DNA of 64,000 nt, from the NCBI RefSeq assembly GCF_963506605.1, contig NC_083288.1:40486001-40550000 (forward strand), read 5' to 3'. Made by a program: the position numbers and the translations under genes. The notes beneath the pieces are model-generated. The model searched no databases. It saw only the letters and a list, made by a program, of their open reading frames with translations, and had not been told where the DNA came from. Shown here one piece after another: positions 28,240 to 64,000 of the stretch (positions are counted from its first letter, which is position 1; every line of letters starts with the position of its first letter). Source of the stretch: Zootoca vivipara. Lineage: Eukaryota.

Positions 28240-28748
28240 TCAGAAGCTGAAAATGCTGCTGGCCAAAACAAAGCTGCTAACAAATGTTGAAGCTGTAGGT
28301 GTTACTATTTGGTTACATCCATTAGCTGATATTTATCTCATAAAACACAGCATGCTAAAAATTCACCTTCATCATCTATCAATTGATCCAAAGTCAATAT
28401 ACCCGCTTCCATCCAATTTTTGCATATCACCATCTTTTCCTGATTTTTTAAAGTTGGGTTTCTAATAGGAAAAGGGGTCGAATCTATTTTTTATTAGGCA
28501 TTGCATTCTATATCTTTCTAGCTGATGTTATTGTTTCCAGAGATTATTATTAATAAAATGGTCTCAACATAAATGTGGTGATTACTGTGTTGTACTATGA
28601 GCTAGGAAAACTGGGTTCAAATCCCCATTCAACTATGGGTCAGATACCATCTCTCAGTCTATCCCACCATGAACTCATTGGATGGGATGCAAGAAGGGAA
28701 ATAAAAACAAATTTAAGGTCCCTGGCTAATGGCATCTCTTTCACCTTC

Positions 28749-31700
28749 TCAATTATGGTCATCCTTCTTCCTTACTAACCTCTCTTTACTGTTCATATCT
28801 GGCCTAAATATAATGATGTGGATTTTGGGGAGGAAGATGCAACCCAGTAAGCCAGCAGTAGAGGCCAAGATGGAGAAGATCTCCACAGCCACCATGTATT
28901 TCCCTTTGGTGCTCAGATAAGTGGGGACAAAGGACAGCCAAACACTGCAGAAGACCAGCATGCTGAAGGTAATCAACTTGGCTTCATTGAAAGTATCAGG
29001 CAACTTCCTGGCAAAGAAAGCCACAGAGAAGCTCACAATGGCCAAAAGACCCATGTAGCCAAGAATAAGGTGGAACATGATGTCGGAGCCTTCATTGCAC
29101 TGCACTGTGATTTTCCCATCCTGGGAGTGCAGGTCAAACTCTGGGAATGGGGGAGAGGATGCCAGCCACCCAACACAGATGCCAGCTTGAATGAGAGAGC
29201 AGAAGGTGATAAGGGATCCTGCCAGCCTCTTCCCAAGCCATTTCCTCATGCTGTTTCCAGGCTTGGTGACCATGAATGCCAAAACCACAGTGAGGGTTTT
29301 GGCTAACACACAAGCAACAGCAATGGAGAAGACGAGGCCAAAGACGGTTTGCCTCAAGACACAGGTCACCTTTGTAGGCCTGCCAATGAATAAGAAGGAG
29401 CAGAGAAAGCAGAGAAGCAGAGAAGAGAGCAAGGTGCAGGTGATTCCCCAGTTGTTGGCTTTGACAATGGGAGTGTTCCAGTGCAGAGCGAAGGTCCCCA
29501 TCACAACAAGCGTGACCAGAGAAAGCAGGAGAGCCAAGGAAGCCAGAATCACCCCCAAGGGCTCCTCATAGGATAGGTAGCTTATTTTTTTTGGAACACA
29601 TTGGTCCTGAAAGGCATTTGGGTAGCGATCGTCTGGGCATTTCTCACACTGATCTGCATCTGAAAGTGAGAAGCATGCTTTTAGCATTTCTGGAAGTGAT
29701 AAAAATTAATTTTATTGATACTGTCTATTATGCTGTGCACAAAAAATATTACTGAGCTGTTGAACCATAGCCTATTTTTTCAACTAAGTGATGGTTCCTC
29801 CATGAGCATCTCCGCTGTACTAATTAATCCATTCATATTTATTTGTCATGGTTGCGGTATACTGATTGATTTCAGTCTTTTCCCATTAAACATGTCTAGC
29901 TCTACTAGTAAGTAAGTGAAGATGAAAATCTGTTGGCTGCAGGTTGAATGCTGACAAAAGGGAATCTATGGAGTGCAATCCTAATTATTTCTTCCCAGAT
30001 GTATGTCATCCTGATTTCAATGGTGGTTACTCCCATGTGGATGTACTTTCACACAATATACTCTTGAAAGAGGAGGCGAGAGGAAAGGACAATATGTATC
30101 AGTAAAATATAAACACATGTGCTTGGGATCCATGACAGTAGATAAGCAGACATAATAAGACTAAGACATGAATGTCTGTGTTGGAGAGGAAGATGGGAAT
30201 TCCAGTTGACTTGGGTTCCTTCACTTACCCTTCTGGACTGAAATCCTCCCTTTAGGGCACTGAACACAGTCATAGCAACACATTTGCTTTCCCTGCTGAG
30301 CAAACATACTCTGTCCAGGGTGGCAGCTCTCAACACAGGTGGAAATGGGCAGCATCTAATGGTAATGACAAGCAAGAGATTTTGAGTGGAATAAATCTTA
30401 TTGTCATCTATATGCAGCAGAAAGGTCACAGGACTGAAAATATCAGGCCCCCTGATAAAGATTCTTTCTGCTGTCCCCAGACTATTTGGCCAGCCCAGCA
30501 GATGCATGAATAGCAAAGAGAAGCTAGTGCCAACATTCTCCTTCCTGATAGATTGATTCCTCATAACCCAAGCCTGATTCCCTTCTGGAGGGAGAGGAGA
30601 GCTGAGATAAGGACCCAGCAGCAAATGCTTCTTCTCCTTCTTAGGTGTGCAGGAGTAGGGAATGAAGGACCATCATGAGTTAGTTCTGGTTGTTGGTGAT
30701 GAAAGATATTTAATATGGTTGCTATACATATTTTCTCTGCAGATCACACAACCTTGACAGTCCTCTCCAAGGAAGTTTTCACCAACCATTTTGTGGGAAT
30801 TAAACTCTCGTTCCCATTTTTAAAGTTATGCGGAAGATAGCCCTGGTCATTTGACCCGTTAAGAAGTTCCCCTTTTCCTCCTATAAAACTATGCAAGACA
30901 CTCTCTTTAAAAGTTCAAATAAGAATTAATAAATATAAAATCTACAATGCACGTAGGCTTCGTTCACATTGCTAATACATCTTTGTATTAGACCTCCAGT
31001 TATATGGCAGTATATAAACTCATTCAATCCATCCATCCATCCATCCATCCATCCATAAAAGATGATGATGATGGATAATGATTAAAAAAAAGATCTCTGG
31101 GTATAGGGTTATATATAAATTCAATCAATCAATCAATCAATCAATCAACCAATCAATCGCCTCAGGCATATGACAACACATATAGCCTTCCATAGCCTTC
31201 TGAGCAGCAGCTCTTTCCTTAGCCTTTGGGATGCTTTCATCCCACACATTATGGCCAAGCCTGCATGGAGTTTGGCCTCACAATCAGCCTGATGGAGACC
31301 AACATCCTGGCACAGGATATCGCCAGCCACTCCGTCCTTCAACATTAGTGACCACACACTTCAGGTGGTAGGTGATTTTCTTTCTACCTAGGCTCCGCAT
31401 TGTTCCCAACAACACATTTTGGAGCACAACAGGCCCTTTTCAAGAGCTTTAAACACTTGCAGATTCCTTACTCATAAATACTTTGTTCTTATCCCTGAAC
31501 TCCAAATTAGCTTCAAACTAGCTCTGCATCAACAAATTTGAACAAAGTAACAAAGATAGTATTTCATCAGTAAGTACCAGAGCTTGTCTCCTCACACCTC
31601 TCCTTTGTAGCCATCTCTGTTTTCCTGGATCTCCTGATCTTCTAATAAAAGATGATGATTAAAATAAGAAATAGTCCCACCCACCTGCTTGAACTTGGGA

Positions 31701-34700
31701 TTCCATGCAACGGCACTTCCATCCACTGTGAACTCTTTTCCTGGGGGTGCCTGAGGGTCCACCCTCCCCACTCGGACTCTCTGGAAAGACTCATTGGGAA
31801 ATGTGACCAAGTTGAGGAGATCATAGCCACCTGCCTGCTGCCCCTTCTCATCAAAAGAGATTTCTTCCCCAGCACTGTTGTTGAAGTGGATGTTCTTCAG
31901 GAAGGAGTGAAGCTAGATTGCAGGGAAAAACAACAACACAATCCTTGGAGGCTAATACGCTCTCTCTCTCTCATTTGCAAAGTGGACCTTTGTATTCTTA
32001 CTACAATTTATCATATATATTGGGTACTTCAAAAAAATTCCCCAATTAATATGTGAAACTGCCATGTGCTGAGTCAAACAACTGGTCTCTGTAGCCCAGA
32101 ACTGTCGACTTTGAATTGCCACAGTGCTACAGGGCATACATCCGAGGTTTCAACCCAATTTTGACACCAGAGGACACCCCTGCCTCTTGTGCAGCCCAAG
32201 TAGGAGAATCCTGGGATGGATTAATTTCAAGAGTTTGAATGTGCAGCTTGCAAAGCATGTGGCCTTTAACTGAGATAATGTCCCTCCCAATGATAGAATT
32301 CACCAGGGGAAATCCCCAAGGCCTCTCCTCCATGCCAGGTCTCAGCTGTGCAACATACAAATCAGTAATAATAACATTTGCTTCTAACATTGAGGAGAGT
32401 AATTGGCAGTACCTGCCAGGGCGGCATCCGTCTCTCAACCAGTACTTTCTGTTTGGCTCTTGATGAATACATGCTATGGAGAGCATGCGCTACTGCATGG
32501 ACGGCATTGTAGATGGTGTAGCTCTGGCTGGACATTTCCATTTCAAACACAGGTCCAGTGAGTTTCTCCAGCTTCTCCTCCCCAGTGCAGTGTTCCCGCA
32601 GTGTCTCAATTAGATTGTTATCTGAGAATGAACAGAGGAATGCACTGGCCCAGAACTCCTGGATGAAATTAAGATTTGACTGCCATGGATTTATGGTCTG
32701 TAGAAAGTCGTGAAACCCTGGAACTGGATTTGAGTGGAGTGTAAATGTCAAGGTGCCATTGAAGGATATGGAAGGGAATTTGTCTCCAGCCAGCACTGCA
32801 GTGAAATCCCATTGAGCTGTTGTAATCCACACCCTCTGTACAGGGTACATAGATAAAACCTCACAGGAGACTAAAACCAGTCTCAAACCCTCTAGAGACT
32901 GACTGTCTCCATAGACGAGAATCACATTCATCTGCCTCTGTGTGAGAGCAAACATGATTGGTCTCAGTTTTTGTTGAAGTAGCTCATTAGGTAACCATTT
33001 TGTCACTAGTGGGATCACCAGTGTCCAAGAAATGCAAAGATTATTTTGGAAAAGCCTTGGTCTAAGAGTACGAAGGAAGGTTTCTCCACTGTCATCATCT
33101 GAAACAAGGAGGCCAATCCAGTTCCACCCAAACTTCCGGAGGAGCCACACAATGCCATCATACTGAGCTTCTTCATTGGGGGCCATTTGGAAGAAGGAAG
33201 GGAAGAGCCTTTTGTCACTCAGCACTGGATCCAAGGAGCCATAGCTGAGCTAAAGTGAAAGGCATCATATTTTTTAGAATCCGAAGACCATCTATTTCTT
33301 CAAAGAAAGAATACGTCTGTGTTGTGGTGGTTAACCACCTGGTCTTACTTTTCAAAGTCTACACCCCTGGCATTATTAAGTCTCAGGGTAAGAGAAGTTT
33401 CTAAATAGGAGGCTGGATGCTCCCATGATTACATGCTTTGTGGCATTGTCAGGTTTGGAAGAATCAGAACTTTGGTTATTAGTATTATTGCTACCTTTGC
33501 CCCCCCCCCCGAAATCCCAATGCTAATTCAGATGGCAGTGTAGACTACACATAGCTATGAAGCTTTAACATAATCATGTACCCATACCAAGTCTAATGTA
33601 GGACATAGGTGTAGAAAACATAATATAATGGGATTGAAAGCAAACCTGGATGCTTTTTGGGGTTTCCCTGTGTATGTCTGCCCTTGTGGTTGTATCTATG
33701 TATCTACAAACATACCTGTGGAATCTTGTAGGTGTTTAATATATTGGCCATCTGAAGGGAGTTTTGGGAGGTGAGCCCTCCAACGACGGCAATTAATTTA
33801 TCTTCCCCATTACAGTGGTAATTGGGGGGATTTTGTTGTCCCACAAAAAGAAGAGCAAGAGTGTTCCAACAAGATTGCAAAGGATTAAAAGCATTCTCAT
33901 AAAATGTTGATCCCAGTGTGATGTTGGATAAGAATTTGGCATTCTTGTTGACCTCTTGCATGGCAAAGATGAAGGCAAGAACATGTTGGTAGTTTTTCGG
34001 GATCAGACTGCAATGAGACAAAGAATGATTGCAACACTGGTGGAAGAGAAACAACTGTGTTTCAGTTTTGATTTGTAAATCTATGTACCTTGAATTTTGC
34101 AACCCATAGGAAAGGAACATTTTATTCCAACTAATGAAACTACAGCAGTCTCCTAATAGAATTTGATTAGATGTATGTGAATGGTGGAGTCCAAGAAATC
34201 CCATGTTGTGCTATGGATGAATTGGTGGGTTTGGATATGGGAACCTTCGAACCAAAATTTCTTAATGTGCCAAGTTCAGTCAAGCTCTAATTCTGTTCCT
34301 ATTTAACTAGGTTCAAAACCACAAATGCAATGGAATATAAAATCGAGTGAAGCTGATTGTATGTTCCCAACTTCTTATATACAGAGTCCACGCCTACTTT
34401 TTGTTTAGTTTCTTTGTCTTCCATTTCTGAAACATGAAATTTTCATGGGAATGTATTCCCAATTGAACCTGGAGAAGAACTAAACATTAGACAAGGGTGG
34501 TCTTACCTGCGGGACACAAGGCCTTTTTTAGTGTCCCTGGAATCTGAGCCTAAGAGAGGGAGAAAGAGGGAGGGTAGTAGGAGTGGGATGTTCCTTCACA
34601 TTCTCTCCCTTTCTTTCTTTACTGCCTTTCTCCCTCATTGCTTTCTGCATGATTGGTATTTTCAATGGTTCCTTTAATGCAATCCCAAGCCAATAGCAAC

Positions 34701-35502
34701 TGACAAGAGTGATTATTTTATGGGAAATGCAATGCCTGTGTCCCCCAGGTTCAGAGTTGTCCTATTGGAAGATGATGATATATTTGTGGAAACCAGCTAA
34801 GCTCTGTCCTCCTGCCAGATGAAAAGTGCAGCTTGTAGCCCTGATGCTGCTGCATGCCTTTTTTTTAAAAAAAAAAACTTTGGAAGTGAAACCTTCCTCT
34901 TCTTCTTTTATTCAGCGAGATTTGCTTCCCCAATAATCATGCACAGCTTAAAGGTTGTGATCACTCAAGCTTCCACTAGAATTTTTTTCCTTCCATGTAA
35001 ACGTGTGGTAATGAAAGCTGTTCTTGATCCCAAGTATTAGAGAGGGATTTGATCAGCCACATCTGGCGCCTTAGCCTGCTAATGGCTTTATTTCTGCTAA
35101 CTCGAGGGGTGGGAAATAGGTCTGAATGTATCCTAGAAGGCTTCCAGGAGAAGCAAAGACAGAAACTGATGCAGTGGTTCATTTAATAAACTCAAGAATG
35201 ATCAGTGGGCCCAGTGGAATTGTTTCTGATAAATAAGTAACTACTTACCGAGCATATAATGCAGAGAATTGGGGGTCCTCTGTTAATTTCTTTATTCTGA
35301 AGTCTGATTGTGTAACGGATACAAATACACCAATGATCATGTCTGCCAGAGGACCATATGAATTGATTTGAATTTTTTGTCTCAATGTGCATGAGGAGGA
35401 GTTCAAACTCTTGCTAGAAGAACAATGCAGCAGCAACAGCAGCAGGAAAAGCAGGTGGAGCGCTAACCATTCTTGTGCTGAACTGCATCTGGAAGCCATC
35501 AT
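28749..35502 (-). CDS. Vomeronasal type-2 receptor (class C GPCR), paralogue 1, six exons, 882 aa
   Basis: Exons 35502-35249, 34007-33716, 33249-32413, 31912-31685, 30355-30229, 29659-28749 (254+292+837+228+127+911 = 2649 nt). All introns GT-AG and phase-compatible. Signal peptide, Venus-flytrap domain (FGWNWIGL), cysteine-rich domain (CCYDCVQC) and 7TM ([17 protein letters not shown]). Confidence 0.95.
31180..31480 (+). mobile_element. Old RTE-type LINE RT fragment in V2R intron 4 (also ~48320-48610 and ~62880-63170)
   Basis: Degenerate translation resembling ACxEFGLTIS..TNIL..[13 protein letters not shown]..F.YLG. Present in all three paralogues, so it predates the duplications. Confidence 0.6.
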
Positions 35503-35619
35503 GTTTGCCTGTAGTCACAATTTCAGTCTTGGCTGCAGTTACAGGGAAACTTGGCTGCATGGAGCTATGTGCCTGCATCATATCCACCTTCCTAACTGGG
35601 TTCATGTAAGTTGATAGGA

Positions 35620-37920: not shown

Positions 37921-38332
37921 CAAGAGCAGGCCTCCTCTCATCCATGCAGTTTGGGGAAATGTGCACTAACAGTTACCAGTCATATTTTGATTGAACTTAT
38001 GTTTATTGGTGCTAAACTAGTCCACTAGTGAGGCAAGACATCCACAGCCACACCTGCAGATGTAAAGGGAAAGTAGAGTTGTGTTTCACCAGTATATTGC
38101 GTGGACAGGCAGTATTTTTATGGGGAATATCTGTTTGAAGATGGATGAGGGCAGATGCAAATCAAAACAAATGTTAATGTGCTTGGAGCAATCCCCATTG
38201 TGTCAACTATGCAAAGAGAGAGTAAGAATTTCTCTTCCAAACCTCCCTCTCTAATATGCCAGAGAGCTCTTAAGAGCACACACAACAAGGGCCCCAACAG
38301 TGTTGTGTATGTGGAATATTGGTACAATCATG

Positions 38333-38749
38333 TGTCAGAGGGCCTGATATGGCTACTCTAGAGTAACGACTCCAGCATGGTCTTTTTAGGCTTTTATTAA
38401 GTGCTGATTATTTACAGTGTTCAGAGCGGTAAATATGCATCCTTAAGGTGAGGTGTCAGAACCTCCGAATGGCGATTGGCGCGTTTTCTTCCAGCACAGA
38501 AGCCTTGGTAGACCCAACCTCTTCCCCCTACGTTTGCGTCGCAATTCGGGAGTTGGGGGGATTGGCCTTCCCCCCGGGCCCCCCACTTCCTGTCCCACCT
38601 GGTGCATGGGCTCCGCAACCTTGCCTGAGCCTCGGACCCCACTTCCTGACCCTCCGCTAGAGGCAGAGCTCTCCCTACTCTCTCCAGCGCTTGGGGATGG
38701 GCTGGAACTTAAGATGGGAGGGACTTCCCTGTATCCCTTGTCCCTCACA
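38333..38749 (-). repeat. Gypsy 3' LTR
   Basis: Direct repeat of 43727-44143; AATAAA on the minus strand near 38393-38398. Confidence 0.98.
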
Positions 38750-39066
38750 TCCACCCCCCTCCCAGGCTCCTCTCCCCCCCTCCCTAAGGGCTCTCCGCTT
38801 GCTGGGGACGAGTGAAACCCCAAGAAGTCCGTGGTGTCAGAGCCTGTGGGTGTAAAAATTTCCCCCCAATCTGGCGATCTTTCCCTCTCCCCCTGAGAAG
38901 ACTGGAATCCCAAAAAGTCTGTGGCGTCAGAGCTGGTGGGAGTAAAAATGTTCTGCCAATCTTCTCCTGCCTCTGACGTAGTCGACCTTGGTGAAACCCA
39001 CACCTCTTCTTCCGTATCCTCAAATTCCGCTTCCCATCTCCATGGAGAGCTGCTGCCTGCTATCCC
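38443..39066 (-). CDS. In-frame C-terminal extension of Gypsy Pol (two FxGF motifs plus a basic NLS-like patch), overlapping the PPT and 3' LTR
   Basis: Same frame as Pol, directly after the TAA at 39069-39067 (39069-39003 = 66 nt), and open for 207 codons. Its internal 90-nt repeat differs mostly at synonymous sites. Confidence 0.7.
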   Translation of the reverse strand, partial: GIAGSSSPWRWEAEFEDTEEEVWVSPRSTTSEAGEDWQNIFTPTSSDATDFLGFQSSQGERERSPDWGEIFTPTGSDTTDFLGFHSSPASGEPLGRGGEEPGRGVDVRDKGYREVPPILSSSPSPSAGESRESSASSGGSGSGVRGSGKVAEPMHQVGQEVGGPGGRPIPPTPELRRKRRGKRLGLPRLLCWKKTRQSPFGGSDTSP

Positions 39067-42000
39067 TTACTCCCGCCCCTCCCCCTCCCTTTCCATGTTC
39101 CAGGGCTTGGGTCTGTGGGGGAAAAGGGCGTGGAACTCTTCCACTAAAAATTCCTCAGGTACTTCCGTGGCCGGTATCCACTCATTGTGGGACGGCGGAG
39201 TGTCCTCCCATGCTATAAGGTACTCCACCCCTCTCACCCCTCTCCTTGAGTCTAAAATCTCAGTTGCCTCATTGAGTCGTCGGGCGTCTCCCGTCTCCCC
39301 CCCTCCCTCTGGAGGCTGATCACTGTCCCGCAACCTGGTGCTTTCTCTGTACGGCGACAGCAGGGATCTATGAAACACTGGGTGCACTCTCATGTCCTCC
39401 GGCAGTGCTAGCCTGAAGGCTACCGGGTTGACCTGTTGCGTGACCGTGAAGGGGCCCAGCCTCCTGGGTGCTAACTTCTTGCATCGCCCCCTGGTGGGAA
39501 GACCTTCCGAGGACAACCAAACCTTGTCCCCCACCCTGATGACCTCCCCCGGTCGCCTGTGGCGATCTGCCCCCTTCTTGTACGCTTCCTTGGCCCTCTC
39601 CAAGTGTTCTCTGAGCTGCTGGTGCACCGTCTCCAGGTCCTCTGCCCAATCCTCTGCCTGTGGGCCCTCCTCCCCCTCCTCCCCCTCCCTCTCTGGGAAA
39701 GATCTGAGGTCGCGCCCATAGTTGGCTTTAAAGGGCGACACCCCTGTGGAAACGTGCACTGCATTATTGTAGGCAAATTCTGCCAGTGGCAGGCGATCCA
39801 CCCAGTCCGTTTGCCTCTGGCTGACGTAGCATCTCAGGTACTGCTGCAGAATGGCGTTGACCCTCTCCGCCTGTCCGTTGGTCTGCGGGTGTCTAGCCGT
39901 CGACAAGCTGACCTCCACCTGCAGGAGGTTCATGAGCCGCCGCCAGAACCTGGAAACAAATTGGCGGCCACGATCCGAAATAACTCTTAAAGGTAATCCA
40001 TGCAGTCTGAATACGTGGTCAACAAACAGTTTGGCTGTCTCTTCTGCAGAGACCGCTCTGGCACACGGTGTAAAGTGGCACATTTTGGACATAAGGTCCA
40101 CCACCACCAACACTGCGGTCTTGCCCCTGGATGAAGGCAGGTCTGTGATGAAGTCCATGGACACCACTTCCCACGGCCTGTGCGGTGTGGCTAAGGGCTC
40201 CAGCAACCCTGCTGGCGCTGCTCTGACCACCTTTGCTCGCTGGCAGGTGTCACAACCCCTTACATAGTCTCGAACATCTTCCCGCACCCCTGGCCACCAG
40301 AAGTGTCTCATGACTAGGTGAGCGGTTTTGTCCCTTCCAAAATGACCCGCCGTTGGGTTGTCGTGCATCTGCTTGAGGACCTTACGTCTAAGCTGGGTGG
40401 TGGGCAGGTACAGTGCACCCTTGTAGAAAAGCAGCCCCCTGCATTCTGCAAAGTCTCTTGCCTGCTCCCTCCCCCCTCGCAGCTCTCTGAAGATGTGGGT
40501 GGCAAACTCATCTGCTGCCGTCAGTGCTGTGAGTTCTGCCTCGCTCACCACTGCTGCTCCGCAGGACCATGCTGATGGGGGGAAAATGTGCCTGGGTGCT
40601 GGTGGCAACTCCTGCTCCATGTACTCTGGTTTGCGGGAGAGGGCGTCCGCCCTGACATCCTGCTCCCCCGGGATGTAGTGGATGGAGAAGTTGAAGTTCG
40701 AGAAGAACTCTGCCCACCGTATCTGCCGCTGGTTGAGCACCCTGGCCGTCCTCCAGAACTCCAGGTTCTTGTGGTCTGTGCACACCTGAATGGGGTGCTT
40801 GGCGCCCACCAGGAAGTGTCGCCAGTGCTGGAATGCAGAGTGGATCGCAAGAAGTTCCCTATCAAACACCGTGTAGTTGCGCTCTGGCTGGGTCAGCTTC
40901 CTGGAGAAGAAGGCACAGGGTCTCCACTCTCTGTTGGCGTCCAGTTGCAACAAAATGGCGCCCACAGCTCTATCTGAAGCATCTGTTTCCACGCGAAGGG
41001 GCGCATCCTGTACCACGTGGAACAGGTTCTGGTCTGAGGCGAATACCCTCTTGAGGCTTTCGAACGCTGCTTGCGCCTCTGGTGTCCACCTGAACTTCTG
41101 CTTGCCTCTCAGGCAGTCAGTGATGGGAGCCGTAACGCGAGAGAAGTTCTTGATGAACTTCCTGTAGAAGTTGGCGAAGCCTAGGAGGCGTTGGGCATCC
41201 TTGCGCGTCCTGGGGCTGTGCCAGTCCAGGATGGCCTGCACCTTGTCCTTGTCCATCGCCAGCCCCTTGTCTGACAGCTTGTAGCCCAGGAAGTCCACTT
41301 CCCTGGTGTGAAACTTGCACTTCTCCAGCTTCACATACAGGTGGTTCTCCTTCAGGCGCTGCAACACCTCCCTGACATCCTTCACATGTTGTACTGGGTC
41401 ATTGGAATAGATAAGGATGTCATCTAGGAATACCAAGCAGTTCTTGAAAAGGAGGGACCCCAGGACGTGGTGCATGAAGGCCTGGAAGCATGCTGAGCCC
41501 CCTTGCAAACCGAAGGGCATCACCAGATATTCAAAAGAGCCCAGTGGCGTGAACATCGTGGTTTTCCACTCATCGCCTTCCCGGATCCTGATCAAGTTGT
41601 ACGCCCCCCTCAGGTCTAGCTTGGTGAAGATCTTGCCCCTGTGCGCCGCTGTCAGCAGATCGTCCACTCTGGGCATTGGGAAAGCCACCGGTTCCGTCAT
41701 GGAGTTGAGCCGTCTAAAATCCACCACCAGACGGCGCTGTTGCGTGTCCTTCTTGTCCACCCAGAAGACCGGGCTGCCCCCTGCTGCCTTGCTTTCTCTG
41801 ATGAACCCCCGCTTGAGGTTCTTGTCGATGAACTCCCTCAGATCCTCCAGTTCCTGATCTGACATGGAGTACAGTTTGGCTGGGGGTAGCGTGGCCCCTG
41901 GCACCAGGTTGATTTGACAGTCAAAGGACCTGTGTGGGGGTAGGTGGTCGGACTCCGCTTCGCTGAAGACCTCCTGCAGGTCCCAGTACGGCTTGGGTAT

Positions 42001-42573
42001 TGCCTCACCCCCCTTGATGTGCATGGTGGCCACTGTGGCGATGGGAGGCCCCTCCCCAGGTTGGCGCTGCATGCAATGCTCCAGACAAAAGTCCGATCCA
42101 AACGTGATGCATCTCTGGTGCCAACTGATAGAGGGGTCATGTTGCTCCAGCCAGCTCATGCCCAAGATGATGGGGGGGTCGGAGATGGTGGTGACGTTGA
42201 ATGCCAGTGTCTCTGAGTGTCATCCCACCGTCATTCTCATGGGGGGGGGTCTGGTGGGTGATGCCCCCCCCCAGTAACTCCCTGCCGTCAATGGTGGAGA
42301 CGTGCAGGGGGAAATCCAGCTGCAGAAGTTGGATCTGGTGCTCTTCTGCAAAGTTTCTCGAGAAGAAGTTGGCTGATGCACCACTGTCAATTAACGCGAG
42401 TACCGTCAGGGGATAGCCATTTGGGAGCGTTAACGTCACTTCTAGAACCACCCCTGCTCTGGGGGGTGGGTGGGCTGTCGCTGCTCCTCGCTGTGCGGGT
42501 GGGTGGGGTGGGGCCGGTTTGTGCTAACTGTGCCTGGCTGCTGCCCCTTGTCTCCTGCAGCCAGGCTGTCTCG
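39067..42573 (-). pseudogene. pol: Gypsy pol (protease, RT, RNase H, integrase, chromodomain)
   Basis: LIDSGASANF, FLDDIL, ETDASD, H..GH..CDTC, SMDFI, SDRG, QTNGQAE, GPF and chromodomain. Lesions in the protease region: -1 nt in G6 (42461-42466), +1 nt in G9 (42241-42249), TGA at 42222-42220. RT through IN is open for over 1000 codons. Confidence 0.95.
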
Positions 42574-43685
42574 TTTCCCTGCTGTGGTGCTGCTTCAGTG
42601 GGGGAAGGTACAACCGTTCCCGCCTTTCCTTGCCACTCCCTGCGATGAGGGCAGTCTCTGATGCGATGCCGGGGGGAGTTGCAGAGAAAGCAATTCCCGC
42701 CTCTTCCCTCCTTGCGTCTTGGCGCCGCCGGGGTTTGAAAAGCCCCCGCGCGCACTCCACCGATCTCCATCGGTTCCGGCTCTGGGCTTGGTCTGGGCGG
42801 GTCTGGGGGCGGGCCCTGGGGTGGGGTTTGGTGATGTGGTCTGTCCTGGGAGCGTGGGAACCAAGGTTTTGCTGCGCGCGTCGCTTGTTTGTCATTCCAT
42901 CTGGATTCCTGTCTCACCCCCACCGCTAGCGCCGCTTTGCTTAAATCATCCATAGTTCGCGGTTTAGGACCTCTCGCCAGCTCATCCTTAACGTCTGCGT
43001 GCAAACCTAGGTAGAAGGCTGATTTCACTGGCTCACTTTGCAGATCCCACCCCAGTTTGTGCACCAGCATGGTGAATCTCGCCCAGTAGTCCCTAACTGT
43101 CGATATTCCTTGTGTTAAGTTATGAAGCTCCTCTTTAGTGGCCTCCATTTCACTGTCACTAGCGTACATTATTTTTAAAGCTTCTAGAAATAGTTTTGCG
43201 TTCTTCATGCAAGGATTTTTTTGCGCGATGAGCGGTCTTACCCATTCTCGGGCGGCCCCCGTCAAATGCTCTATGATAAAGGAGACTCTGTGCGCGTCAT
43301 CTGGGAATTCTGCTGCATGCAATTCCAGCGCATAATTTATTTCTGTCTCAAATCCTAGGTACTCCCTAGTGTCGCCGCTAAACTTGGTGACTAGGCTCTG
43401 TCCCCTCCTCACTTGGACTAGCTGCGGCTGGGGCGCCCCCCCACCTCTAGCGGCTTTCTCCTCTTCCAACTTCTTCTGCAGGTCCAATACCATCACCCTT
43501 AGCTGTTTCTCAGTCTCCTCTTTTGTCCTCACCTGGTCCACCAGCTTGTCCAGCTCCTCCTGCGCCCCTCGCGCTTCCTCCTGAGCGGCATGCAATTGCT
43601 GCTGTGCCTGCGCTGTAAGGTTCCGTAGCTCCTGCTTCGCTGCTTCGGCCTCCAGCCTCCAATGCTCAGCCTCCTGCGCGCTCAT
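42387..43685 (-). CDS. gag: Gypsy Gag (coiled coil, capsid, CCHC zinc knuckle)
   Basis: ATG 41 nt inside the 5' LTR boundary; KFSGD..LTGAAREW..LTQG capsid motifs; CFLCNSPRHRIRDC. The true stop is uncertain because of the downstream homopolymer indel. Confidence 0.92.
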   Translation of the reverse strand: MSAQEAEHWRLEAEAAKQELRNLTAQAQQQLHAAQEEARGAQEELDKLVDQVRTKEETEKQLRVMVLDLQKKLEEEKAARGGGAPQPQLVQVRRGQSLVTKFSGDTREYLGFETEINYALELHAAEFPDDAHRVSFIIEHLTGAAREWVRPLIAQKNPCMKNAKLFLEALKIMYASDSEMEATKEELHNLTQGISTVRDYWARFTMLVHKLGWDLQSEPVKSAFYLGLHADVKDELARGPKPRTMDDLSKAALAVGVRQESRWNDKQATRAAKPWFPRSQDRPHHQTPPQGPPPDPPRPSPEPEPMEIGGVRAGAFQTPAAPRRKEGRGGNCFLCNSPRHRIRDCPHRREWQGKAGTVVPSPTEAAPQQGNETAWLQETRGSSQAQLAQTGPTPPTRTARSSDSPPTPQSRGGSRSDVNAPKWLSPDGTRVN

Positions 43686-43726
43686 CGCGGCACTCCAAAG
43701 TAGCCAAAAAAAGATTCGGAGGTTGC

Positions 43727-44143
43727 TGTCAGAGGGCCTGATATGGCTACTCTAGAGTAACGACTCCAGCATGGTCTTTTTAGGCTTTTATTAAGTGCTG
43801 ATTATTTACAGTGTTCAGAGCGGTAAATATGCATCCTTAAGGTGAGGTGTCAGAACCTCCGAATGGCGATTGGCGCGTTTTCTTCCAGCACAGAAGCCTT
43901 GGTAGACCCAACCTCTTCCCCCTACGTTTGCGTCGCAATTCGGGAGTTGGGGGGATTGGCCTTCCCCCCGGGCCCCCCACTTCCTGTCCCACCTGGTGCA
44001 TGGGCTCCGCAACCTTGCCTGAGCCTCGGACCCCACTTCCTGACCCTCCGTTAGAGGCAGAGCTCTCCCTACTCTCTCCAGCTCTTGGGGATGGGCTGGA
44101 ACTTAAGATGGGAGGGACTTCCCTGTATCCCTTGTCCCTCACA
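43727..44143 (-). repeat. Gypsy 5' LTR
   Basis: Direct repeat of 38333-38749. Confidence 0.98.
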
Positions 44144-44544
44144 TCATGGAACCCACATACAATATTTGAACGTTGTGATTACTGTAACATGAATTTAATG
44201 TACAAATCTATAAACAAAGGGAAAATAAGGGTTGCATTTAAAAATGAACGGATATTGAAAACATTAGCCACAACATGACCTGAGGAACGCCTGACCTGGA
44301 TTTGGGCCCAGATCAATTCTCATGTTTCTCCACACAGACAGCACCCTGGAGAAGTAGAGCACAGTAAGTAACAGCATTTCACATTCGGCTCAGCAGCAGG
44401 TGAGCAGAGGGTGAATTTTCTTTATTTGGCCTGTGTTTGTCTTTTGAGGGTATAGACAGGCAGGCCAAAAATGCAGATATTCAGCAAAGTTTACAAAAGA
44501 TGCACAAATACCCCATGGTCCCAGCATAATGTGCTGTCCTAGGT

Positions 44545-44924: not shown

Positions 44925-47900
44925 TCAACTATGGTCATCCTTCTTCCTTACTAACCTCTCCTTACTGTTCATCTCAGGCCTAAATATAATGATGAAGATT
45001 TTAGGGAGGAAGATGCAACCCAGTAAGCCAGCAGTAGAGGCCAAGATAGAGAAGATCTCCACAGCCACCATGTATTTCCCTTTGGTGCTCAGATAAGTGG
45101 GGACAAAGGACAGCCAAACACTGCAGAAGACCAGCATGCTGAAGGTAATCAACTTGGCTTCATTGAAAGTATCAGGCAACTTCCTGGCAAAGAAAGCCAC
45201 AGAGAAGCTCACAATGGCCAAAAGACCCATGTAGCCAAGAATCAGGTGGAACATGATGTTGGAGCCTTCATTGCACTGCACTATGATTTGCCCATCCTGG
45301 GAGTGCAGGTCAAACTCTGGGAATGGGGGAGAGGATGCCAGCCACCCAACACAGATGCCAGCCTGAATGAGAGAGCAGAAGGTGATAAGGGATCCTGCCA
45401 GCCTCTTCCCAAGCCATTTCCTCATGCTGTTTCCAGGCTTGGTCACCATGAATGCCAAAACCACAGTGAGGGTTTTGGCTAACACACAAGCAACAGCAAT
45501 GGAGAAGACGATGCCAAAGACGGTTTGCCTCAAGACACAGGTCACCTTTGTAGGCCTGCCAATGAATAAGAAGGAGCAGAGAAAGCAGAGAAGCAGAGAA
45601 GAGAGCAAGGTGCAGGTGATTCCCCAGTTGTTGGCTTTGACAATGGGAGTGTTCCAGTGCAGACCGAAGGTCCCCATCACAACAACCGTGATCAGCGAAA
45701 GAAGGAGAGCCAAGGAAGCCAGAATTGCCCCCAAGGGCTCCTCATAGGATAAGTAGCTTATTTGTTTTGGAATACATTGGTCCCGAAAGGCATTTGGGTA
45801 GTGATCAGCTGGGCATTTCTCACACTGATCTGCATCTGAAAGTGAGAAGCATGCTTTTAGCATTTCTTGAAGCAAAAAATTATTAATATTATTGATACAG
45901 TCTATTATGGTGTACACGAAACATATTACTGAGCTGATGAACCAAAGGTGATGAACCAAAGTGATGGTTCCTCTCTGATCATCTCAGATTTACTAATCAA
46001 TCTATGCATATTTATTTGTCATGGTCGCAGTATATTGATTGATTTCAGTGTTCCCCCTTAATCATGTCCAGCTCTGCATCCAGCCCCATGTTTTTGCATT
46101 TCTAAGCTTGTCGTCTAAGTGTTTCTTTTTTACACTTTCTGTAAGGGAACTTGGGAGTAGACGAAACAGCCAAGTAGCCTGTCATCAGGAAAATCTATAT
46201 TTCACAAGAAATGACTGTTCCTAAGGCTTGAAACTGTGTGGATACAATAGAAGAGATAATTTACAATTTTAATAACAGAAGATGAAAATTTGTTGGCTGC
46301 AGTTTCAATGGTGAGAAAAGGAAATCTATGGCATGCAATCCTATCCATTTCTACCCAGATGTATGTTATGCTGATTTCAATGGTGCTTACTCCAATGCGG
46401 ACGTAGTTTCACAGAAGATATACCAGAATAGCTGTCCAAAGAGTAGGGGAAAGGAAAGGAAAATATGTATCAGTAAAATAAACACATGTGCTTGGGATCC
46501 ATGACAGAAGATGAGCAGACATAATAAGACTGAAACATGAATGTCTGTGTTGGAGAGGAAGATGGGAATTCCAGTTGACTTGGGTTCCTTCACTTACCCT
46601 TCTGGACTGAAATCCTCCCTTTCGGGCACTGAACACAGTCATAGCAACAGATTTGTTTTCCCTGCTGAGCAAACATACTCTGTCCAGGGTGGCAGCTCTC
46701 AACACAGGTGGAAATGGGCAGCATCTAAGGGTAATGACAAGCAAGGGATTTTGAATGGAATAAGCTTGCTTCTCTACATAAATCTTATTGTCATCTATGT
46801 CTGCTATGCGGCAGAAAGGTCACAGGGCTGAAATTAGAGGATGACTGTCAAGCATTTGCTCCCTTGGCAAGCATCAGGCCCCCTGATAAAAATGCTTTGT
46901 GCTGTCACCTAACCATTTGGCCAGCCCAGCACATGTCTGAATGGCAAAGAGAAGCTCCTGCCAACCTTCTCCTTCTTGATAGATTGATTCCTCATAACCC
47001 AATGCTGAATCCCTCCTGCAGACACTGTCTTTTAAAGTTTAAATAAGAATTAATTTTTACTTAGTGTACTATGGCAGCTTTTGACTGATCTTGGATTAAG
47101 AAAGATAGAGAAAGTAAGATTAAGGGTATAAATCATCGTAAGAATGTAGTATATAAAGGATAGAGATTAGAGAAATGAGGTTGGGTACATTCAATATAAG
47201 AATTAAATTATACAACGGGATTCGACAGGAAGTCTATTTTTTATGTCATAGCCTTTGTAAATAATCGAATAGAAACTAGCAGCAATACATTTTAAGTTTT
47301 TGTTCATAAGTATGCAAGAAAGGACAAACACAGGTTTTTCTTTTTCTTTTTATTATTTTTCTTTTTATTCTTCTTCTTCTTCTTTGTGTAAATAGCTGGA
47401 ATTTTCATTTATTCTGAGAGATGTATTATATATTTAATGCTCTGCAAGACTATTAATAAAGCTAATAAAAATACTTAGTGTACTTTTACTTGCAGATTAA
47501 AATACACGATGCAGGCAGGTGTTACTTACATTGCTGATACATCTTATATAGATTTTTATCTAAGATAAATGCTGTTACAGACTGACAGCAGCACAACAGA
47601 ACATTCTGCTCTATTGTGTTTTTAATATTCGGTTGGGAGCCGCCCAATGCCCCTGGGGATACCCAGCTTCATGGGCGGGGTATAAATAAATTATTATTAT
47701 TTCGATTCAACCCATCACATAAATCATTACCTCATTTTATATTTAATATTAATCATTACCTCATTTCATGTTTAATACGCATGCGCAATAAGCATCGCTA
47801 ACTAAACTTTGATTCTCACCGTGATCTGTTACATATTGTTAGTTTACATGCATGGGAACCTGTGTTACGTGTGGATGTAACAACTTATGTTCTAGCTCAT

Positions 47901-50900
47901 GAATTATATCATTGTGATTTGCGTATTAGCTGACCTTCTGTTCTGGTAAAAGAACGGCATCTTGCTGAATCATCAGTTCCTTTAAAGCATCAGGTTACCA
48001 TAACTCTTCTAATATAAGCATATCCTGAGATTTATAAGGATTTACATTATCACCTTAATTGTGGCCCTTTGGGCCCCTGCTACAATAACTGCCATAACTG
48101 TACAAACCGACAGAACTATGCCCTTTTAAAATGTGGTTTGTTTGTTTTTACAGGGGCTATTGGGTTGTTGTTTTTATTATGATTATGTATGATGTGGTTT
48201 CATGTGTTTATTTCAATCTATGAATCGCCCTGAGACCTCTTGGTATAGGGTGGTATATAAATTCAATCCACCCACCCATTGCATCAGGCATATGAAAGCA
48301 AAGGGTTCTATAGCCTTCTGAGCATTCACCGTTTCCTTAGACTTTTGGAGGCTTTCATCCCAAACATTATGGCCAAGCCTGCACGGAGTTTGGCCTCACC
48401 ATCAGCCTGATGGACACCAACATCCTGCAACAGGTTATCACTGGCACTCCATCCATCAACATTAGTGACCACACACTTCAGGTGGTAGGTGATTTTCTTT
48501 CTACCTGGACTCCACTTGTTGGGACACAGTCTCAAACAAAGATTGTTGCCAACAACACATTTTGGAGCACAACAGTCCCTTTTCAAGAGCTTTAAACATT
48601 TGCCAATTCCTCACCCAGAAATACTTTGCTCTTTAACCCTGAGCTCCAAATTTGAACAAAGTAACAAAGATTGTAGTTCATCAGTGAGTACCAGAGCTTG
48701 TCTCCTCACACCTCTCCTTTGTAGCCATCTCTGTTTTCCTGGATCTCCTGATCTTCTCATAAAAGATGATGAAAACAAGAAATAGTCCCACCCACCTGCT
48801 TGAACTTGGGATTCCATGCAATGGCACTTCCATCCACTGTGAACTCTTTTCCTGGGGGTGCCTGAGGGTCCACCCTCCCCACTCGGACTCTCTGGAAAGT
48901 CTCATTGGGAAATGTGATCAAGTTGAGGAGATCATAGCCACCTGCCTGCTGCCCCTTCTCATCAAAAGAGATTTCTTCCCCAGCACTGTTGTTGAAGTGG
49001 ATGTTCTTCAGGAAGGAGTGAAGCTAGATTGCAAGGGGGGGGGGGGAGACAGACCTTGTAGGTTAATACGCTCTCTCTTTTGCCAGTTGGACCTTTGGCT
49101 TTTTACTACCATTCATCGGTATGTTATAGGACACTGAAAGTTGCCTTCCAGTGAGTGAAATCATTGCTCTATATAGCTCAGTAATTTCTACACTGGTTGT
49201 TATTGACTCTCTAAGGTTGCTCTAGTCTATTCTGAATTCAAAGCAGATGCTCTGCCATTGAGCTGTAAGCTCTTGTTTTACTTGGCATAGATACTGGGTA
49301 CTTCAAAAAACTCCCCATTAACATATGAAACTGTCATGTGCTGAGTCAAACAATTGGTCTCTGTAGTCCAGAACTGTCTACTCTGAATTGCCACAGTTCT
49401 ATACGGCATACATCTGAGGTTTCAACCCAGTTCTGATGACAGAGGACACCCCTTTCCCTTATGCAGCCCCAAGTAGGAGAATCCTGGGATGGATTAATTT
49501 CAAGAGTTTGAATGTGCAGCTTGCAAAGCATAAGAAATAAATTCTCACCCAATGATAGAGCTCACCAGGGAAAATCCCCAAGGCCTCTCCTCCATGCCAG
49601 GTCTCAGCTGTGCAACATACAAATCAGTAATAATAATAACACCTGTGCTTCTAACATTGAGGAGAGTAGTTGACAGTACCTGCCAGGGCTGAACTTTTGG
49701 CTGCATCCATCTTTCACCCAGTACTTTCTGTTTGCCTCTTGATGAATACATGCTATGGAGAGCATGTGCTACTGCATGGACGGCATTGTAGATGGTGTAG
49801 CTCTGGCTGGACATTTCCATTTCAAAGACAGGTCCAGTGAGTTTCTCCAGCTTCTCCTCCCCAGTGCAGTTTCTCTGAGTTGTGGCAATTAGATTGTGAT
49901 CTGGGAATGAACAGAGGAATGCACTGGCCCAGAACTCCTGGATGAAATAAAGATTTGGCTGCCATGGATTCATGGTCTGTAGAAAGTCCTGAAACCCTGG
50001 AACTGGATTTGAATGGAGTGTAAATGACAAAGTGCCATTGAAGGATATTGATGGGAATTTGTTTCCAGCCAGCACTGTAGTGAAATCCCATTGAGCTGTT
50101 GTAATCCACACCCTCTCCAGAGGGTTCATAGCGAAAACCTCACAGGAGACTAAAACCAGTCTCAAACCCTCCAGAGACTGACTGTCTCCATAGACGAGAA
50201 TCACATTCATCTGCCTCTGTCTGAGAGCAAACATGATTGGTCTCAGTTTTTGTTGAAGTAGCTCATTAGGAAAAAAGTTTGTCACTAGTGGGATCACCAG
50301 TGTCCAGGAAATGCAAAGATTATTCTGGAAAAGCCTTGGTCTGAGAGTACGAAGGAAGGTTTCTCCACTGTCATCATCTGAAACAAGGAGGCCAATCCAG
50401 TTCCACCCAAACGTCCGGAGGAGCCACACAATGCCATCATATTGAGCTTCTTCATTTGGGGCCATTTGGAAGAAGGAAGGGAAGTGCCTTTGGTCACTCA
50501 GCACTGGATCTAAGGAGCCATAGCTGAGCTAAAGGGAAAGACACCATATTTTTAAGAATCCGAAGACCATGTATTTCTTCAAAGAAATAATACTTCTGTA
50601 TTGTGGTGGTTAACCACCTGGTCTTACTTTTCAGAGTCTACACCCCTGGCATTATTAAGTCTCAGGGTAGGAGAAGTTTCTAAACAGGAGGCTGGATGCT
50701 CCCATGATTACATGCTTTGTGGCATTGTCAGGTTTGGAAGAATCAGAACTTTGGTTATTACTATTATTGCTTCCTTTGCCCCCCCCCCGAAATCCCAATC
50801 CTAATTGAGACGGCAGTGTAGGCAACACATAGCTATGAGGCTTTAACATAATCATGTACCCATACCAAGTCTAATGTAGGACATATGTGTAGAAAACATA

Positions 50901-53900
50901 ATGTAATGGGATTGAAAGCTAACCTGGATGCTTTTTGGTGTTTTCCTGTGTATTTCTGCCCTTGTGGTTGTATCTATCTACACACATACCTGTGGAATCT
51001 TGTAGGTGTTTAATATATTGGCCATCTGAAGGGAGTTTTGGGAGGTGAGCCCTCCAACGACGGCAACTAATTTATCTTCCCCCTTACAGTGGTAATTGGG
51101 GGGATTTTTTTGTCCCATGAAAAGAAGAGCAAGAGTGTTGAAACAAGATCGCAAAGGGTTAAAAGCATTCTCATAAAATGTTGATCCCAGGGTGATGTTG
51201 GATAAGAATTTGGCATTCTTGTTGATCTCTTGCATGGCAAAGATGAAGGCAAGAACATGCTGGTAGTTTTTCGGGATCACACTGCAATGAGACAAAGAAT
51301 GACTACAACACCTTTTTAGAACTAAAATATCCACCTGATGAAGTTAAACAACAGATCAACAGAGCCAGACAGATACCTAGAGAGAACCTGCTGCAAGACA
51401 GACCCAAAAAAGAAAATAACAGAACACCACTAGTCATCACATACAGCTCCCAAGTTAAAACAGTACAACGCATCATCAGAGATCTACAGCCTCTCCTGGA
51501 CAATGACAGCTCCCTTTCTCAAGCTCTGGGAGGAAGACCTTTCATTGCCTACAGACAGCCACCCAATCTTAAACAACTCCTCACCCACAATAATACAACC
51601 ACCAGACTTAACATGGACACTGGTACCAGAGCCTGCAATAAACCCAGATGCCAACTTTGCTGCCACATACACCCAGACAACACCATTACTGGCCCCAACA
51701 ACATCCAACATACCATCTCAGGACTATTTAATTGCTCATCCTCTAACATTGTGTATGCCATCAAATGCCAACAGTGCCCTTCAGCTCTCTATATTGGACA
51801 AACAGGCCAAACCCTACGCCAAAGGATAAATGGACATAAATCTGACATCAGGAACCAGAAGACAGAAAAACCAGTAGGAGAACACTTCAATCTCCCAGGA
51901 CATTCTATACAAGATCTCAAAGTAGCTGTCTTACTACAAAAGAATTTCAGAAATAGACTGGAAAGAGAAGTTGCTGAATTACAACTTATCACCAAGCTCA
52001 AAACCATGGAGGGACCTGGTTTGAACAGAGATATCGGATTCTTATCTCATTATACATGATAAGCGATCTTCAGCCATCTCAACCCTTGCTTTTTCATGCA
52101 AAACCATTTGCAGTCGTTTCCAGTCATCAACAGCTATCAGTCAGTCAATCACCCATTTCCACCACCCTTCTGAGTGATCCCCCAACCCCATCCCCACCCC
52201 TCCCCACTCCTTCTCTACATATGTGCCTGGAAACTCCCATTTCACTGTATCTGAAGAAGTGTGCATGCACACGAAAGCTCATACCAAAATAAAAACTTAG
52301 TTGGTCTTTAAGGTGCTACTGAAGGAATTTTTTTATTTTACTTCGACCCAGACCAACACGGCTACCTACCTACAACACTGGAGGAAGAGAAACAAGTGTG
52401 TTTCAGTTTTGATTTGTGAATCTATGTACCTTGAATGTTGCAACCCATAGGACAGGAACATTTTATTACAACTAATGAAACTGGAGCAGTCTCCTTATAG
52501 ATTTTGATTAGATTTAGGTAAATGGTGAATTCAAAGAGATTCATTTTTGTGCTATGGATGAATTGGTGGGTTTGGATATGGGAAACCCAGAAACAGAAAG
52601 CTGTTAAGTTCTACGGTTAACACATTCCCCTCTCTTTTAAACATAATCTCCATGCCTGTCTCTTGTTCTTCTTCTTTGTCCACCACCTCCCTTCCGTTTC
52701 TGAACCATGAAGTATTCACTGGAATATGTTCTCAATTCAACCTGTAGAACAACCATTTAGTATACCAGTGTGCTCCAACACACAAGGGCTTTTGAGCGGC
52801 CCTTGAATCACAGTGTAAGAGAGGGAGACAGTGTCAGCATTTGTGCCCGGGGGACAGGATGAGACTGCCCAGAGCTGGAGCAATGCCCTGTGCACATTCC
52901 TGGCTGTAAGGACAGACTTGTGGCATGAAAATATGCGATTGTCCTCATTTGTGAAGAACAACACACACAAGTAATAAAGAGCCATACAGTAGGGCTAAAC
53001 TACTTTATTGTAGGCTATTCACAACATCAATCTCTGCTGCGCTGCTCAGATACTCAGAGTTGTGCATAGTTGCTTCCAGCACGTCTCGAGCCAGAAGCGA
53101 AAATAAAGAAGTACAATACCATCACATGGGGAGAAAGGCAGATAACACACAGTCATTTTTCACGGTAAAATTCCAGACACACAAATCATACCACCCTGTG
53201 CTGTAGAAGCTCGGTGAACAAAATCATAACAGACAGATGGGAGGGTAGGACTGGGATGGTCTCTCCTTCTCTCCTTCTCTCCCTGCTACATTTTGACTGC
53301 CAGTAGTGAGCTCCAGGAACAGACAGAGAAACTGCATATGAGCAATATCTGCTCTATTTCCCCCTCGCTGCTTTCTGCACGCTAAGTCTTCTAAACTGCT
53401 GATTTCATGCAACTCCAAGCCATTAGCAAGTGACAGAATACTTGGTACGCCTATTTAAATTATGACAAGTGTAAAGTACATAAAAGCTTTACCAACCATA
53501 TAATAAGAAATGTGCTGTTTAAGGTACGGGCAAAATACAAACCCCTGCTAGAACATAAAACACCACTTTGGATATCTCCTTTAGAGGCCAAGGTGGTTAA
53601 AAAGAAAAATATGAAAGGAGATTGGCTGCCATATAACTCATTACTAACAGAGGATGGTAACCAAGTAAGACTAAAGAATTATGAAGAAGTAAAGGATCAA
53701 CTATTAGGATGGCTAGAGTATTCCCAACTCTTTGCGACGTCCAGTACATTTCTGAGCACAATTCAAAGTGTTGGTGCTGACCTTTAAAGCCCTAAACGGC
53801 GTTGGTCCAGTATATCTGAAGGAGCATCTCCACCCCCATCATTCTACCAGGACACTGAGGTCCAGTGCCGAGGGCCTTCTGGTGGTTCCCTCGCTGCGAG

Positions 53901-58239: not shown

Positions 58240-58976
58240 TTTTATTATTGTTATTTATACCCCACCCATCTGGCTGGGTTTTCCCAGCCACCCTGGGCAG
58301 CTTACAGCATACCTTAAAACATAAAACATCAAGCGTTAAATACCTCCTGATAGAGGGCTGCCATCAGATGTCTTTTAAAATAAATATTAAAGATTTTTTT
58401 GGTTTACAAAACTCGATGCCTTGTCTTTCTCCCTGGGTTCTACGGTATTTCTTACAAAGCAGTTACATTTGTTGTGAGACATTAGTGTTGAGCACAGTAG
58501 AAGGTTGGGGAAGAAGAGGGGGTGTAGAGAGGAGGGGTGGTGTGGTAAGGCTTATATTCCGTTTTTAACCTGAAATGGTTCTTTTTTTATTTTAAAATTC
58601 TTTTTATTCATTTTATGCGTGAATCGCCAAACCCAGAAGTAATCCTGATCTTTTTTTGAAGTTGGGTTTCTTATAGGAAAAAGGGCCAAATCTATTTTTA
58701 TTAGGCATTGCATTCTATATCTTTCTAGCTGATGTTATTGTTTCCAGAGATTATTATTAATAAAATGGTCTCAACATAAATGTGGCGATTACTGTGTTGT
58801 ACTATGAGCTAGGAAAACTGGGTTCAAATCCCCATTCAACTATGGGTCAGATACCATCTCTCAGTCTATTCCACCAGGAACTCATTGGATGGGATGCAAG
58901 AAGGGAAATAAAGACAAATTTAACATCTCCTTGCCAAAATATAAGGTCCCTGGCTAATGCCATCTCTTTCACCTTC

Positions 58977-61900: not shown

Positions 61901-61995
61901 GAACATTCTGCTGTATTGTGTTTTTAATATTCGGTTGGGAGCCGCCCAATGTCCCTGGGGATACCCAGCTACATGGGCGGGGTATAAATAAATAA

Positions 61996-62028
<33 letters not shown>

Positions 62029-63579: not shown

Positions 63580-63882
63580 CTAGATTGCAAGGGGAGGGGG
63601 AGAGACAGACCTTGTAGGCTAATGTGCTCTCTCTATTGCCAGTTTGACCTTTGGCTTTTTACTACCATTCACCGGTATGTTATAGGACACTGAAAGCTGC
63701 CTTACAGTGAGTGAAATCATTGCTCTATATAGCTCAGTCATTTCTATACTGGTTGTTATTGACTCTCTAGGGTTTCAGAGTCTTTCCCAGCATGATCTTG
63801 AGATGCTGGGGGTTGAACATGGGACCTTCTGAATGAACAGAAATGCTCTGCCATTGAGCTGTAAGCCTTTCCAGTTCCAATA

Positions 63883-64000
63883 CAGTGGTACTTTGGGTTA
63901 TGAACACTTTGGGTTACAAACGTGTCAGGTCACAAACTCCGCTAACCTGGAAGTGGTGCCTCAAGTTGTGAACTTTGCCCCAGGATGAGATCAGAAATTG
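63883..64000. mobile_element. Tc1/mariner-type MITE, left end
   Basis: TA followed by cagtggtactttgggtta, resembling the TIR of the 2443-2695 element; runs off the window. Confidence 0.55.

Follow-up and report, generated by a model that had tools for sequence, protein, structure and literature searches.

We predict that the integrase tail of a lizard Ty3/Gypsy chromovirus binds the IBD of LEDGF/HRP2, whose PWWP would bring the element to H3K36me2/3 chromatin in place of direct methyl-lysine reading by its own chromodomain; we give this reading a probability of about 0.6. In most copies the motif concerned is in frame with the integrase, and it is conserved, selected as protein, consistent with published IBM features and limited to a lineage whose chromodomain lacks its cage. 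The element is full-length (5.8 kb, 44143-38333, minus strand) and lies in the window, the whole stretch of 64,000 nucleotides of Zootoca vivipara DNA that was analysed. ORFs and domain matches identified gag, protease, RT, RNase H, integrase, SH3 and chromodomain. The LTRs, target-site duplication, gag, PR-RT-RH-IN order and C-terminal chromodomain mark the element as a chromovirus. Its features are as follows.

44144..44148, minus: target-site duplication of 5 bp, upstream copy (second copy at 38328-38332)
43727..44143, minus: 5' LTR (417 bp, TG...CA), 2 mismatches against the 3' LTR
43714..43724, minus: primer-binding site of 11 nt, complementary to LTR 43864-43854, self-priming type
42387..43685, minus: gag ORF with Retrotrans_gag, Ty3_capsid and a weak CCHC knuckle (ORFs and domain matches)
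42573..42579, minus: GGGAAAC heptamer, candidate -1 frameshift site into pol
42137..42523, minus: protease-coding ORF with DSG motif, its frame differing from that of RT in the window copy
39067..42219, minus: RT-RNaseH-integrase-SH3-chromodomain ORF
39130..39267, minus: chromodomain with N and T in place of aromatic-cage residues 1 and 3, the W being retained
39067..39069, minus: TAA stop, private to the window copy
38443..39066, minus: acidic integrase tail, predicted disordered, in most copies continuous with Pol and running through the polypurine tract into the 3' LTR
38995..39042, minus: third unit without FxGF (W-x-W-x-A-x-F and an acidic run), retained by families A, B and C of the own genome
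38905..38961, minus: IBM/TIM-like unit 1 (W-x-x-I-F, S/T/D linker of 9 residues, FLGF)
38815..38871, minus: IBM/TIM-like unit 2
38754..38763, minus: polypurine tract, across which the Pol frame stays open
38485..38547, minus: LTR-encoded basic cluster and L-L-C-W-K/R motif, conserved in P0003 and P0004, variant in P0002
38333..38749, minus: 3' LTR; its AATAAA (38398) follows the stop codon that usually closes the ORF (38445-38443)

The two LTRs of the window element differ at only 2 positions, indicating a young insertion. A self-complementary 11-nt primer site (43714-43724 and 43854-43864) replaces a tRNA PBS, presumably as in Tf1/sushi, and would put the transcript start near 43864. The GGGAAAC heptamer is one that we take to resemble the PEG10 site. 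In the window copy, a frame break near 42220-42245 separates the protease and RT ORFs. The nearest named relatives of the element are proteins of lacertid lizards, and we place it in a lizard lineage of sushi-like chromoviruses with a long disordered integrase tail and one or two putative IBD-binding motifs.

The two tandem units had been placed by the earlier note at 38961-38905 and 38871-38815 on the minus strand, each of 19 residues with a 90-nt period, and the same positions were recovered here. Its tally of codon differences from I to the last F (15 codons; 6 synonymous, 2 replacement) was reproduced exactly, and over all 19 codons the units differ by 6 synonymous and 4 replacement changes. 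The units had also been described as lying downstream of the chromodomain in the Pol frame. A Pfam Chromo match (E 4e-6) and a frame equal to that of RT-RH-IN agree with this, but in the window copy a TAA at 39069-39067 closes Pol 35 codons ahead of unit 1, so that this copy cannot make a Pol-motif fusion without readthrough. Thus the repeat, its codon counts and its frame in most copies stood, whereas the stop, the loss of the chromodomain cage and the run of the ORF through the 3' LTR had been missed.

Among DNA matches in the own genome, the best 40 of 1369 first-look candidates were scored and the best 30 fetched, window copy included. The TAA was absent from 29 of these 30, the window copy being the one that has it, and the frame was open from the chromodomain to unit 1 in 27/30 and through both units in 25/30. 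A set of distinct loci (L001-L095), biased toward intact copies, gave a similar picture: in family A the TAA was absent from 66/67 copies, 64/67 were open to at least one unit and 62/67 to both, and in family B the corresponding counts were 16/18 and 10/18. A conserved stop dividing the motif from Pol, which the earlier note had named as a point to check, was therefore rejected; the in-frame continuity in most copies indicates that the motif belongs to the normal Pol tail of the family. In most copies the Pol frame continues across the polypurine tract and the entire U3 and ends, still ahead of the poly(A) signal, at 38445-38443; the LTR (38333-38749, minus strand) thereby doubles as coding and regulatory sequence. 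The Pol frame is also open through U3 in the sister family L103, indicating that the open U3 predates the FxGF motif. The LTR-encoded LLCWK/R region showed low pN/pS (0.05-0.29), and the tails of sister families end basic and lack LLCW; the basic cluster and motif may serve as an NLS or chromatin anchor. In CRM, too, the ORF extends into the 3' LTR and includes a basic stretch resembling an NLS (PMC3605345).

RNA raw reads matched the element at 90% identity or more (247, 595 and 2165 in three runs, with about 6% of each run sampled), in both mate orientations and mostly from other copies, which shows RNA of the family, not a strand or transcript unit. In one run, six reads jump over 1144 nt bounded by GT..AG inside RT/RNase H (40784-41927, minus strand), possibly a spliced transcript of some copy.

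A TIM is described as a helix followed by an acidic or phosphorylatable linker of 8-16 residues and an optional FxGF (PMC9987994). IBM consensus sequences are given as D/E-x-E-x-FxGF (PMC8022399) and S/E-x-FxGF, the latter with the DPF3a peptide LFGSTSESDTSTFHGF, whose binding to HRP2 was raised by phospho-S at -2 and abolished by S-to-A (PMC7337902); the upstream helix of IBMs is covered in PMC10854676. Both window units contain the FxGF core and end in DFLGF, to be set beside the fly JIL-1 motif quoted as DFxGFDE (PMC6877644). Their linkers are 9 residues long, with D, S or T at 7/9 positions per unit, D at -4, T at -2 and just 2 acidic residues, so that strong binding would need phosphorylation. 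The CK2 consensus claimed for the linkers is present, since T-S-S-D and T-G-S-D match S/T-x-x-D/E.

Nine sequences selected as family representatives supplied 14 units for comparison. FxGF was present in all 14, the spacing was F-x9 in 12 and F-x8 in 2, and no linker contained K/R (0/14). Position -4 was D/E in 12/14; position -2 was T in 8, S in 4 and E in 2, giving S/E at -2 in 6/14, and D/E-x-E-x-FxGF was matched in full by 2/14 (P0004 unit 1 and P0217 unit 1). A CK2-type S/T-x-x-D/E site was found by sequence match in 12/14, and W/F-x-x-x-F spacing, which a putative upstream amphipathic helix with a conserved F would show, in 13/14. On the charge-hydropathy index, a crude predictor, six tails scored -0.13 to -0.35 versus -0.00 to +0.09 for the IN core, so the tail is predicted to have the disorder expected around an IBM/TIM. 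The proposed likeness to IBM/TIM motifs is thus supported by FxGF, linker, disorder and resemblance to DPF3a, but T at -2 where S/E is expected is a conservative mismatch. By every sequence feature examined except this one, the window units should work like an IBM.

With the set of DPF3a, JPO2/CDCA7L, IWS1, PogZ, MLL1, ASK and fly JIL-1, the window units have in common a hydrophobic pair ending in F, a basic-free D/E/S/T linker of 8-9 residues, FxGF and a disordered acidic region. They differ from it in being encoded by a mobile element, in T at -2 in the window's families, and in proline and fewer acids in the linker. The motif had been called bivalent; this fits the two units of the window lineage, but two are not required, as P0001, P0003 and P0007 have one.

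The partner had been proposed as LEDGF/HRP2 or elongation-factor TNDs. Because FxGF matters specifically for LEDGF and HRP2 (PMC9987994), the likely partner is narrower than any TND, and we limit the proposal to these two. A different TND (IWS1, TFIIS, ELOA, MED26 or PPP1R10) would fit the conservation of the FxGF-less third unit with its helix and acidic run, which could itself be a TIM, as many TIMs lack FxGF (PMC9987994). Other candidate partners are transport factors, reached through the FG-like word, and ATG8-family proteins, reached through a LIR-like acidic W-x-x-I/V. D-W-x-x-I in both window units matches the LIR consensus pattern, but W/F-x-x-I/V is missing from P0001, P0004 unit 1 and P0217 unit 1, where F..FxGF is invariant; LIR was accordingly rejected as the main signal, and we consider any of these other partners distinctly improbable. 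For LEDGF/HRP2, structural searches were uninformative. IBD-IBM fusion entries were not retrieved from the PDB by profile or single-peptide search, which gave chance matches only and is insensitive for such short motifs, and an ESM Atlas search with the P0004 motif region gave a best score of 0.80 and nothing usable. Complex prediction pairing window unit 1 (32 aa) with a lacertid HRP2 IBD (P0175 460-548), run with no alignment, scored 0.01, gave no verdict and is evidence neither way; single-sequence AlphaFold of the chromodomain and units was unusable (mean pLDDT 35).

The pattern F-x(8-9)-F-x-G-F with its D/E/S/T-rich, basic-free linker is kept in relatives down to about 40-50% identity, including own-genome L061 and L069, with tails around it that are otherwise unalignable between distant families. 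P0004, P0216 and P0217 carry two units (one decayed in P0216) and P0001, P0002, P0003 and P0007 one; P0001 has zero acidic residues in its linker. In a survey of 152 proteins, the chromodomain end could be mapped in 150, and 87 had tails of at least 40 residues, many outside tails being gene-prediction chimeras; FxGF occurred in 6, of which five belong to the motif lineage and the sixth is in unrelated text and has no upstream F. A metagenome scan with P0004 kept 80 loci, none above 47% identity, and found FxGF in no tail, just 6 tails reaching 40 residues; of 56 readable chromodomains at these loci, 51 were intact, 1 lacked positions 1 and 3, and 4 were other.

Selection on the peptide, claimed earlier from the two copies, was borne out by five pairwise comparisons against L002, in which pN/pS was 0-0.27 in the units (where computable) versus 0.23-0.66 in the spacer and 0.34-0.73 from unit 2 to the LTR, with small counts, uncorrected and non-independent, and by the retention of the motif in distant families. 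A chance repeat was rejected on the same grounds. We also considered an intramolecular or nucleic-acid role, such as packing on the cage-less chromodomain, a protease site or a cis-signal near the polypurine tract, or near neutrality. The chromodomain is conserved despite its lost cage, as packing would have it, and the synonymous divergence of unit 1 is low in 2/5 pairs (0.00 and 0.18), which could reflect recombination or DNA-level constraint. However, codons vary across families at invariant motif residues, pN/pS is low, and a single F-x(8,9)-FxGF arises by chance in just 0.06-0.7% of 100,000 composition-preserving shuffles of each of 5 tails. The motif also lies 8, 45, 54 or 84 residues from the chromodomain, depending on the family, which points to re-duplication and repeated turnover, not mere inheritance. 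We therefore regard these roles as highly improbable, and a protein-binding motif is retained as the preferred reading.

In a quick IQ-TREE of 58 integrase C-terminal rows, 11 of them loci of the own genome and 47 proteins picked by hand, with SH-aLRT as the only support measure and the root at the midpoint, a branch of support 100 has all 13 motif-bearing rows on the same side. Two motif-less rows share that side, P0005, whose tail is apparently frame-shifted, and P0023, which is decayed. Cage residues 1 and 3 were lost in 14/14 readable chromodomains of the motif lineage, four of which also lack the tryptophan; outside the lineage, three aromatics are kept in every one of the 28 fully readable rows out of 43, the others being partly read (4) or unread (11). 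The window cage reads N-W-T instead of the group I Y-W-Y, and its match to HP1-alpha (E 1.4e-3) begins after position 1. The closest outside families in the own genome, L103 and L098/L100, have a Y-W-Y cage and a long acidic tail that ends basic and lacks FxGF; L103 aligns to HP1-alpha across the cage (E 1.4e-7), and its acidic tail is as long as that of the motif lineage. As cage loss and motif gain fall on one branch, they count as a single event and give no statistical correlation; the coincidence is suggestive.

The chromodomain of the motif lineage is still under purifying selection (pN/pS 0-0.13). Plant group II chromodomains remain functional without these cage residues, so cage loss need not end chromodomain targeting. 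Group II, in which the first and third cage residues are lacking as in the window chromodomain, was detected only in plants as of 2013 (PMC3605345); chromodomain groups and heterochromatin targeting are covered there and in PMC2864245. Unlike plant group II, the lizard cage loss falls within a set of vertebrate group I elements, which makes it look convergent, and is accompanied by the FxGF motif. It would represent group II-like chromodomain decay in an animal lineage. The Gag-PR-RT-RH-IN-chromodomain order is the same as in other chromoviruses, whether group I, group II or CR-motif.

In the proposed mechanism, the W/F-x-x-I/V-F segment would be the anchoring helix on the IBD of LEDGF/p75 or HRP2, the S/T/D/E linker would face the basic patch of the IBD, and FxGF would enter a second pocket, with phosphorylated linker S/T, -2 included, raising the affinity. 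If the tail remains on the integrase, the PWWP of LEDGF/HRP2 would tether the pre-integration complex to H3K36me2/3 chromatin, and this docking may have taken over from methyl-lysine reading by the chromodomain. Judged by its sequence, the peptide very probably binds an LEDGF/HRP2 IBD; given that binding, integration tethering is quite probably its purpose. A one-step targeting switch in a vertebrate chromovirus, which lost its cage, gained a linear, phospho-switchable mimic of an LEDGF/HRP2 ligand and independently reached the tethering factor of HIV, we regard as an even bet.

Host readers and insertion sites were examined in the own genome. The HDGFL2/HRP2 IBD exon is present, and the two arginines required in human HRP2 appear to be kept in lacertid P0175 (R520/R521, equivalence from sequence context); PSIP1 was not found in one search. 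GC (p=0.21) and CpG (p=0.26) of 900-bp flanks were no different in the motif families (n=74) than in the intact-cage family (n=30). The window copy lies between two V2R (vomeronasal-receptor-like) genes, with no obvious gene body as read from ORFs. These two observations and the conserved chromodomain speak against the targeting step, although as weak proxies. On 10-kb flanks of 20 young copies, strand skew had the same sign in 11/19 usable pairs, an uncontrolled count that speaks neither for nor against a bias.

The flank result would suit a tail that binds LEDGF/HRP2 for something other than site choice, recruiting or sequestering the readers, on the integrase or after protease cutting, for chromatin retention, integration efficiency or transcription/anti-silencing. 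The entire motif evidence fits this equally, and with its LTR-encoded basic motif the tail acts like an accessory region. Against such a role stand the coincident loss of the cage and the place of the motif directly behind the integrase chromodomain, where the flexible MLV IN tail has its BET-binding motif (PMC5053271). We consider it unlikely, and integration tethering remains the preferred reading.

Integrase-tail tethering comparable to that proposed here is known from Ty5-Sir4 and Ty1-AC40. MLV integrase carries a short BET-binding motif on a flexible C-terminal tail (PMC5053271); the lizard element would similarly use a short motif for a host chromatin factor, with docking predicted from sequence, but it is a Ty3/Gypsy element with another motif for another host domain. 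With lentiviral integrases it would share the host readers, LEDGF/HRP2, and the outcome. HIV IN contacts LEDGF through a pre-arranged structured surface and not an unstructured IBM (PMC6382798), in agreement with the earlier note, whereas the lizard element has a linear motif on its tail and should therefore compete like a cellular partner, independent of D366. Lentiviral integrases are the only viral TIM mimics named in the accessible text of PMC9987994, where "transpos" is absent. No mobile-element IBM was found, by titles and abstract beginnings, among the papers listed on LEDGF/FxGF/IBM, IBM partners, LEDGF and retrotransposons, TIMs and transposons, and reptile or vertebrate chromoviruses, a scope that excludes the primary IBM/TIM papers and most subscription papers and leaves absence unproven. 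Host-binding motifs on integrase tails were already known; this motif, the proposed partner route and the coupling to cage loss would be new.

If the reading is correct, the element would be a mobile-element mimic of an IBM/TIM and a second, mechanistically different user of LEDGF/HRP2 for integration besides lentiviruses; in lizard germ cells it would be expected to compete for the IBD with MLL1, IWS1, JPO2 and DPF3a. To our knowledge, little is known about site choice of vertebrate Gypsy elements. Two young sister families in one genome that differ in exactly cage versus motif offer a natural controlled experiment on integration targeting. The intact-cage sister family (L103/L117 and L100) is young, has a W-rich acidic tail and could serve as the control for insertion studies; one of its copies lies about 120 bp from a protocadherin-like exon.

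Several further observations concern genomic setting. The window contains tandem vomeronasal type-2 receptor-like genes on the minus strand (28488-35514, 44925-52000 and 58695-64000), spaced about 14-17 kb apart and 91-97% alike. Tandem element copies with a common LTR were found at G000:C6:89482771-89489669 (L055, L056) and at L003. In the 3' flank of L046 (family A), a coding exon that we take to be KCTD-like (BTB) lies within about 1 kb of the copy. Finally, 13 of the 40 best family-A matches cluster at G000:C9 45-63 Mb.
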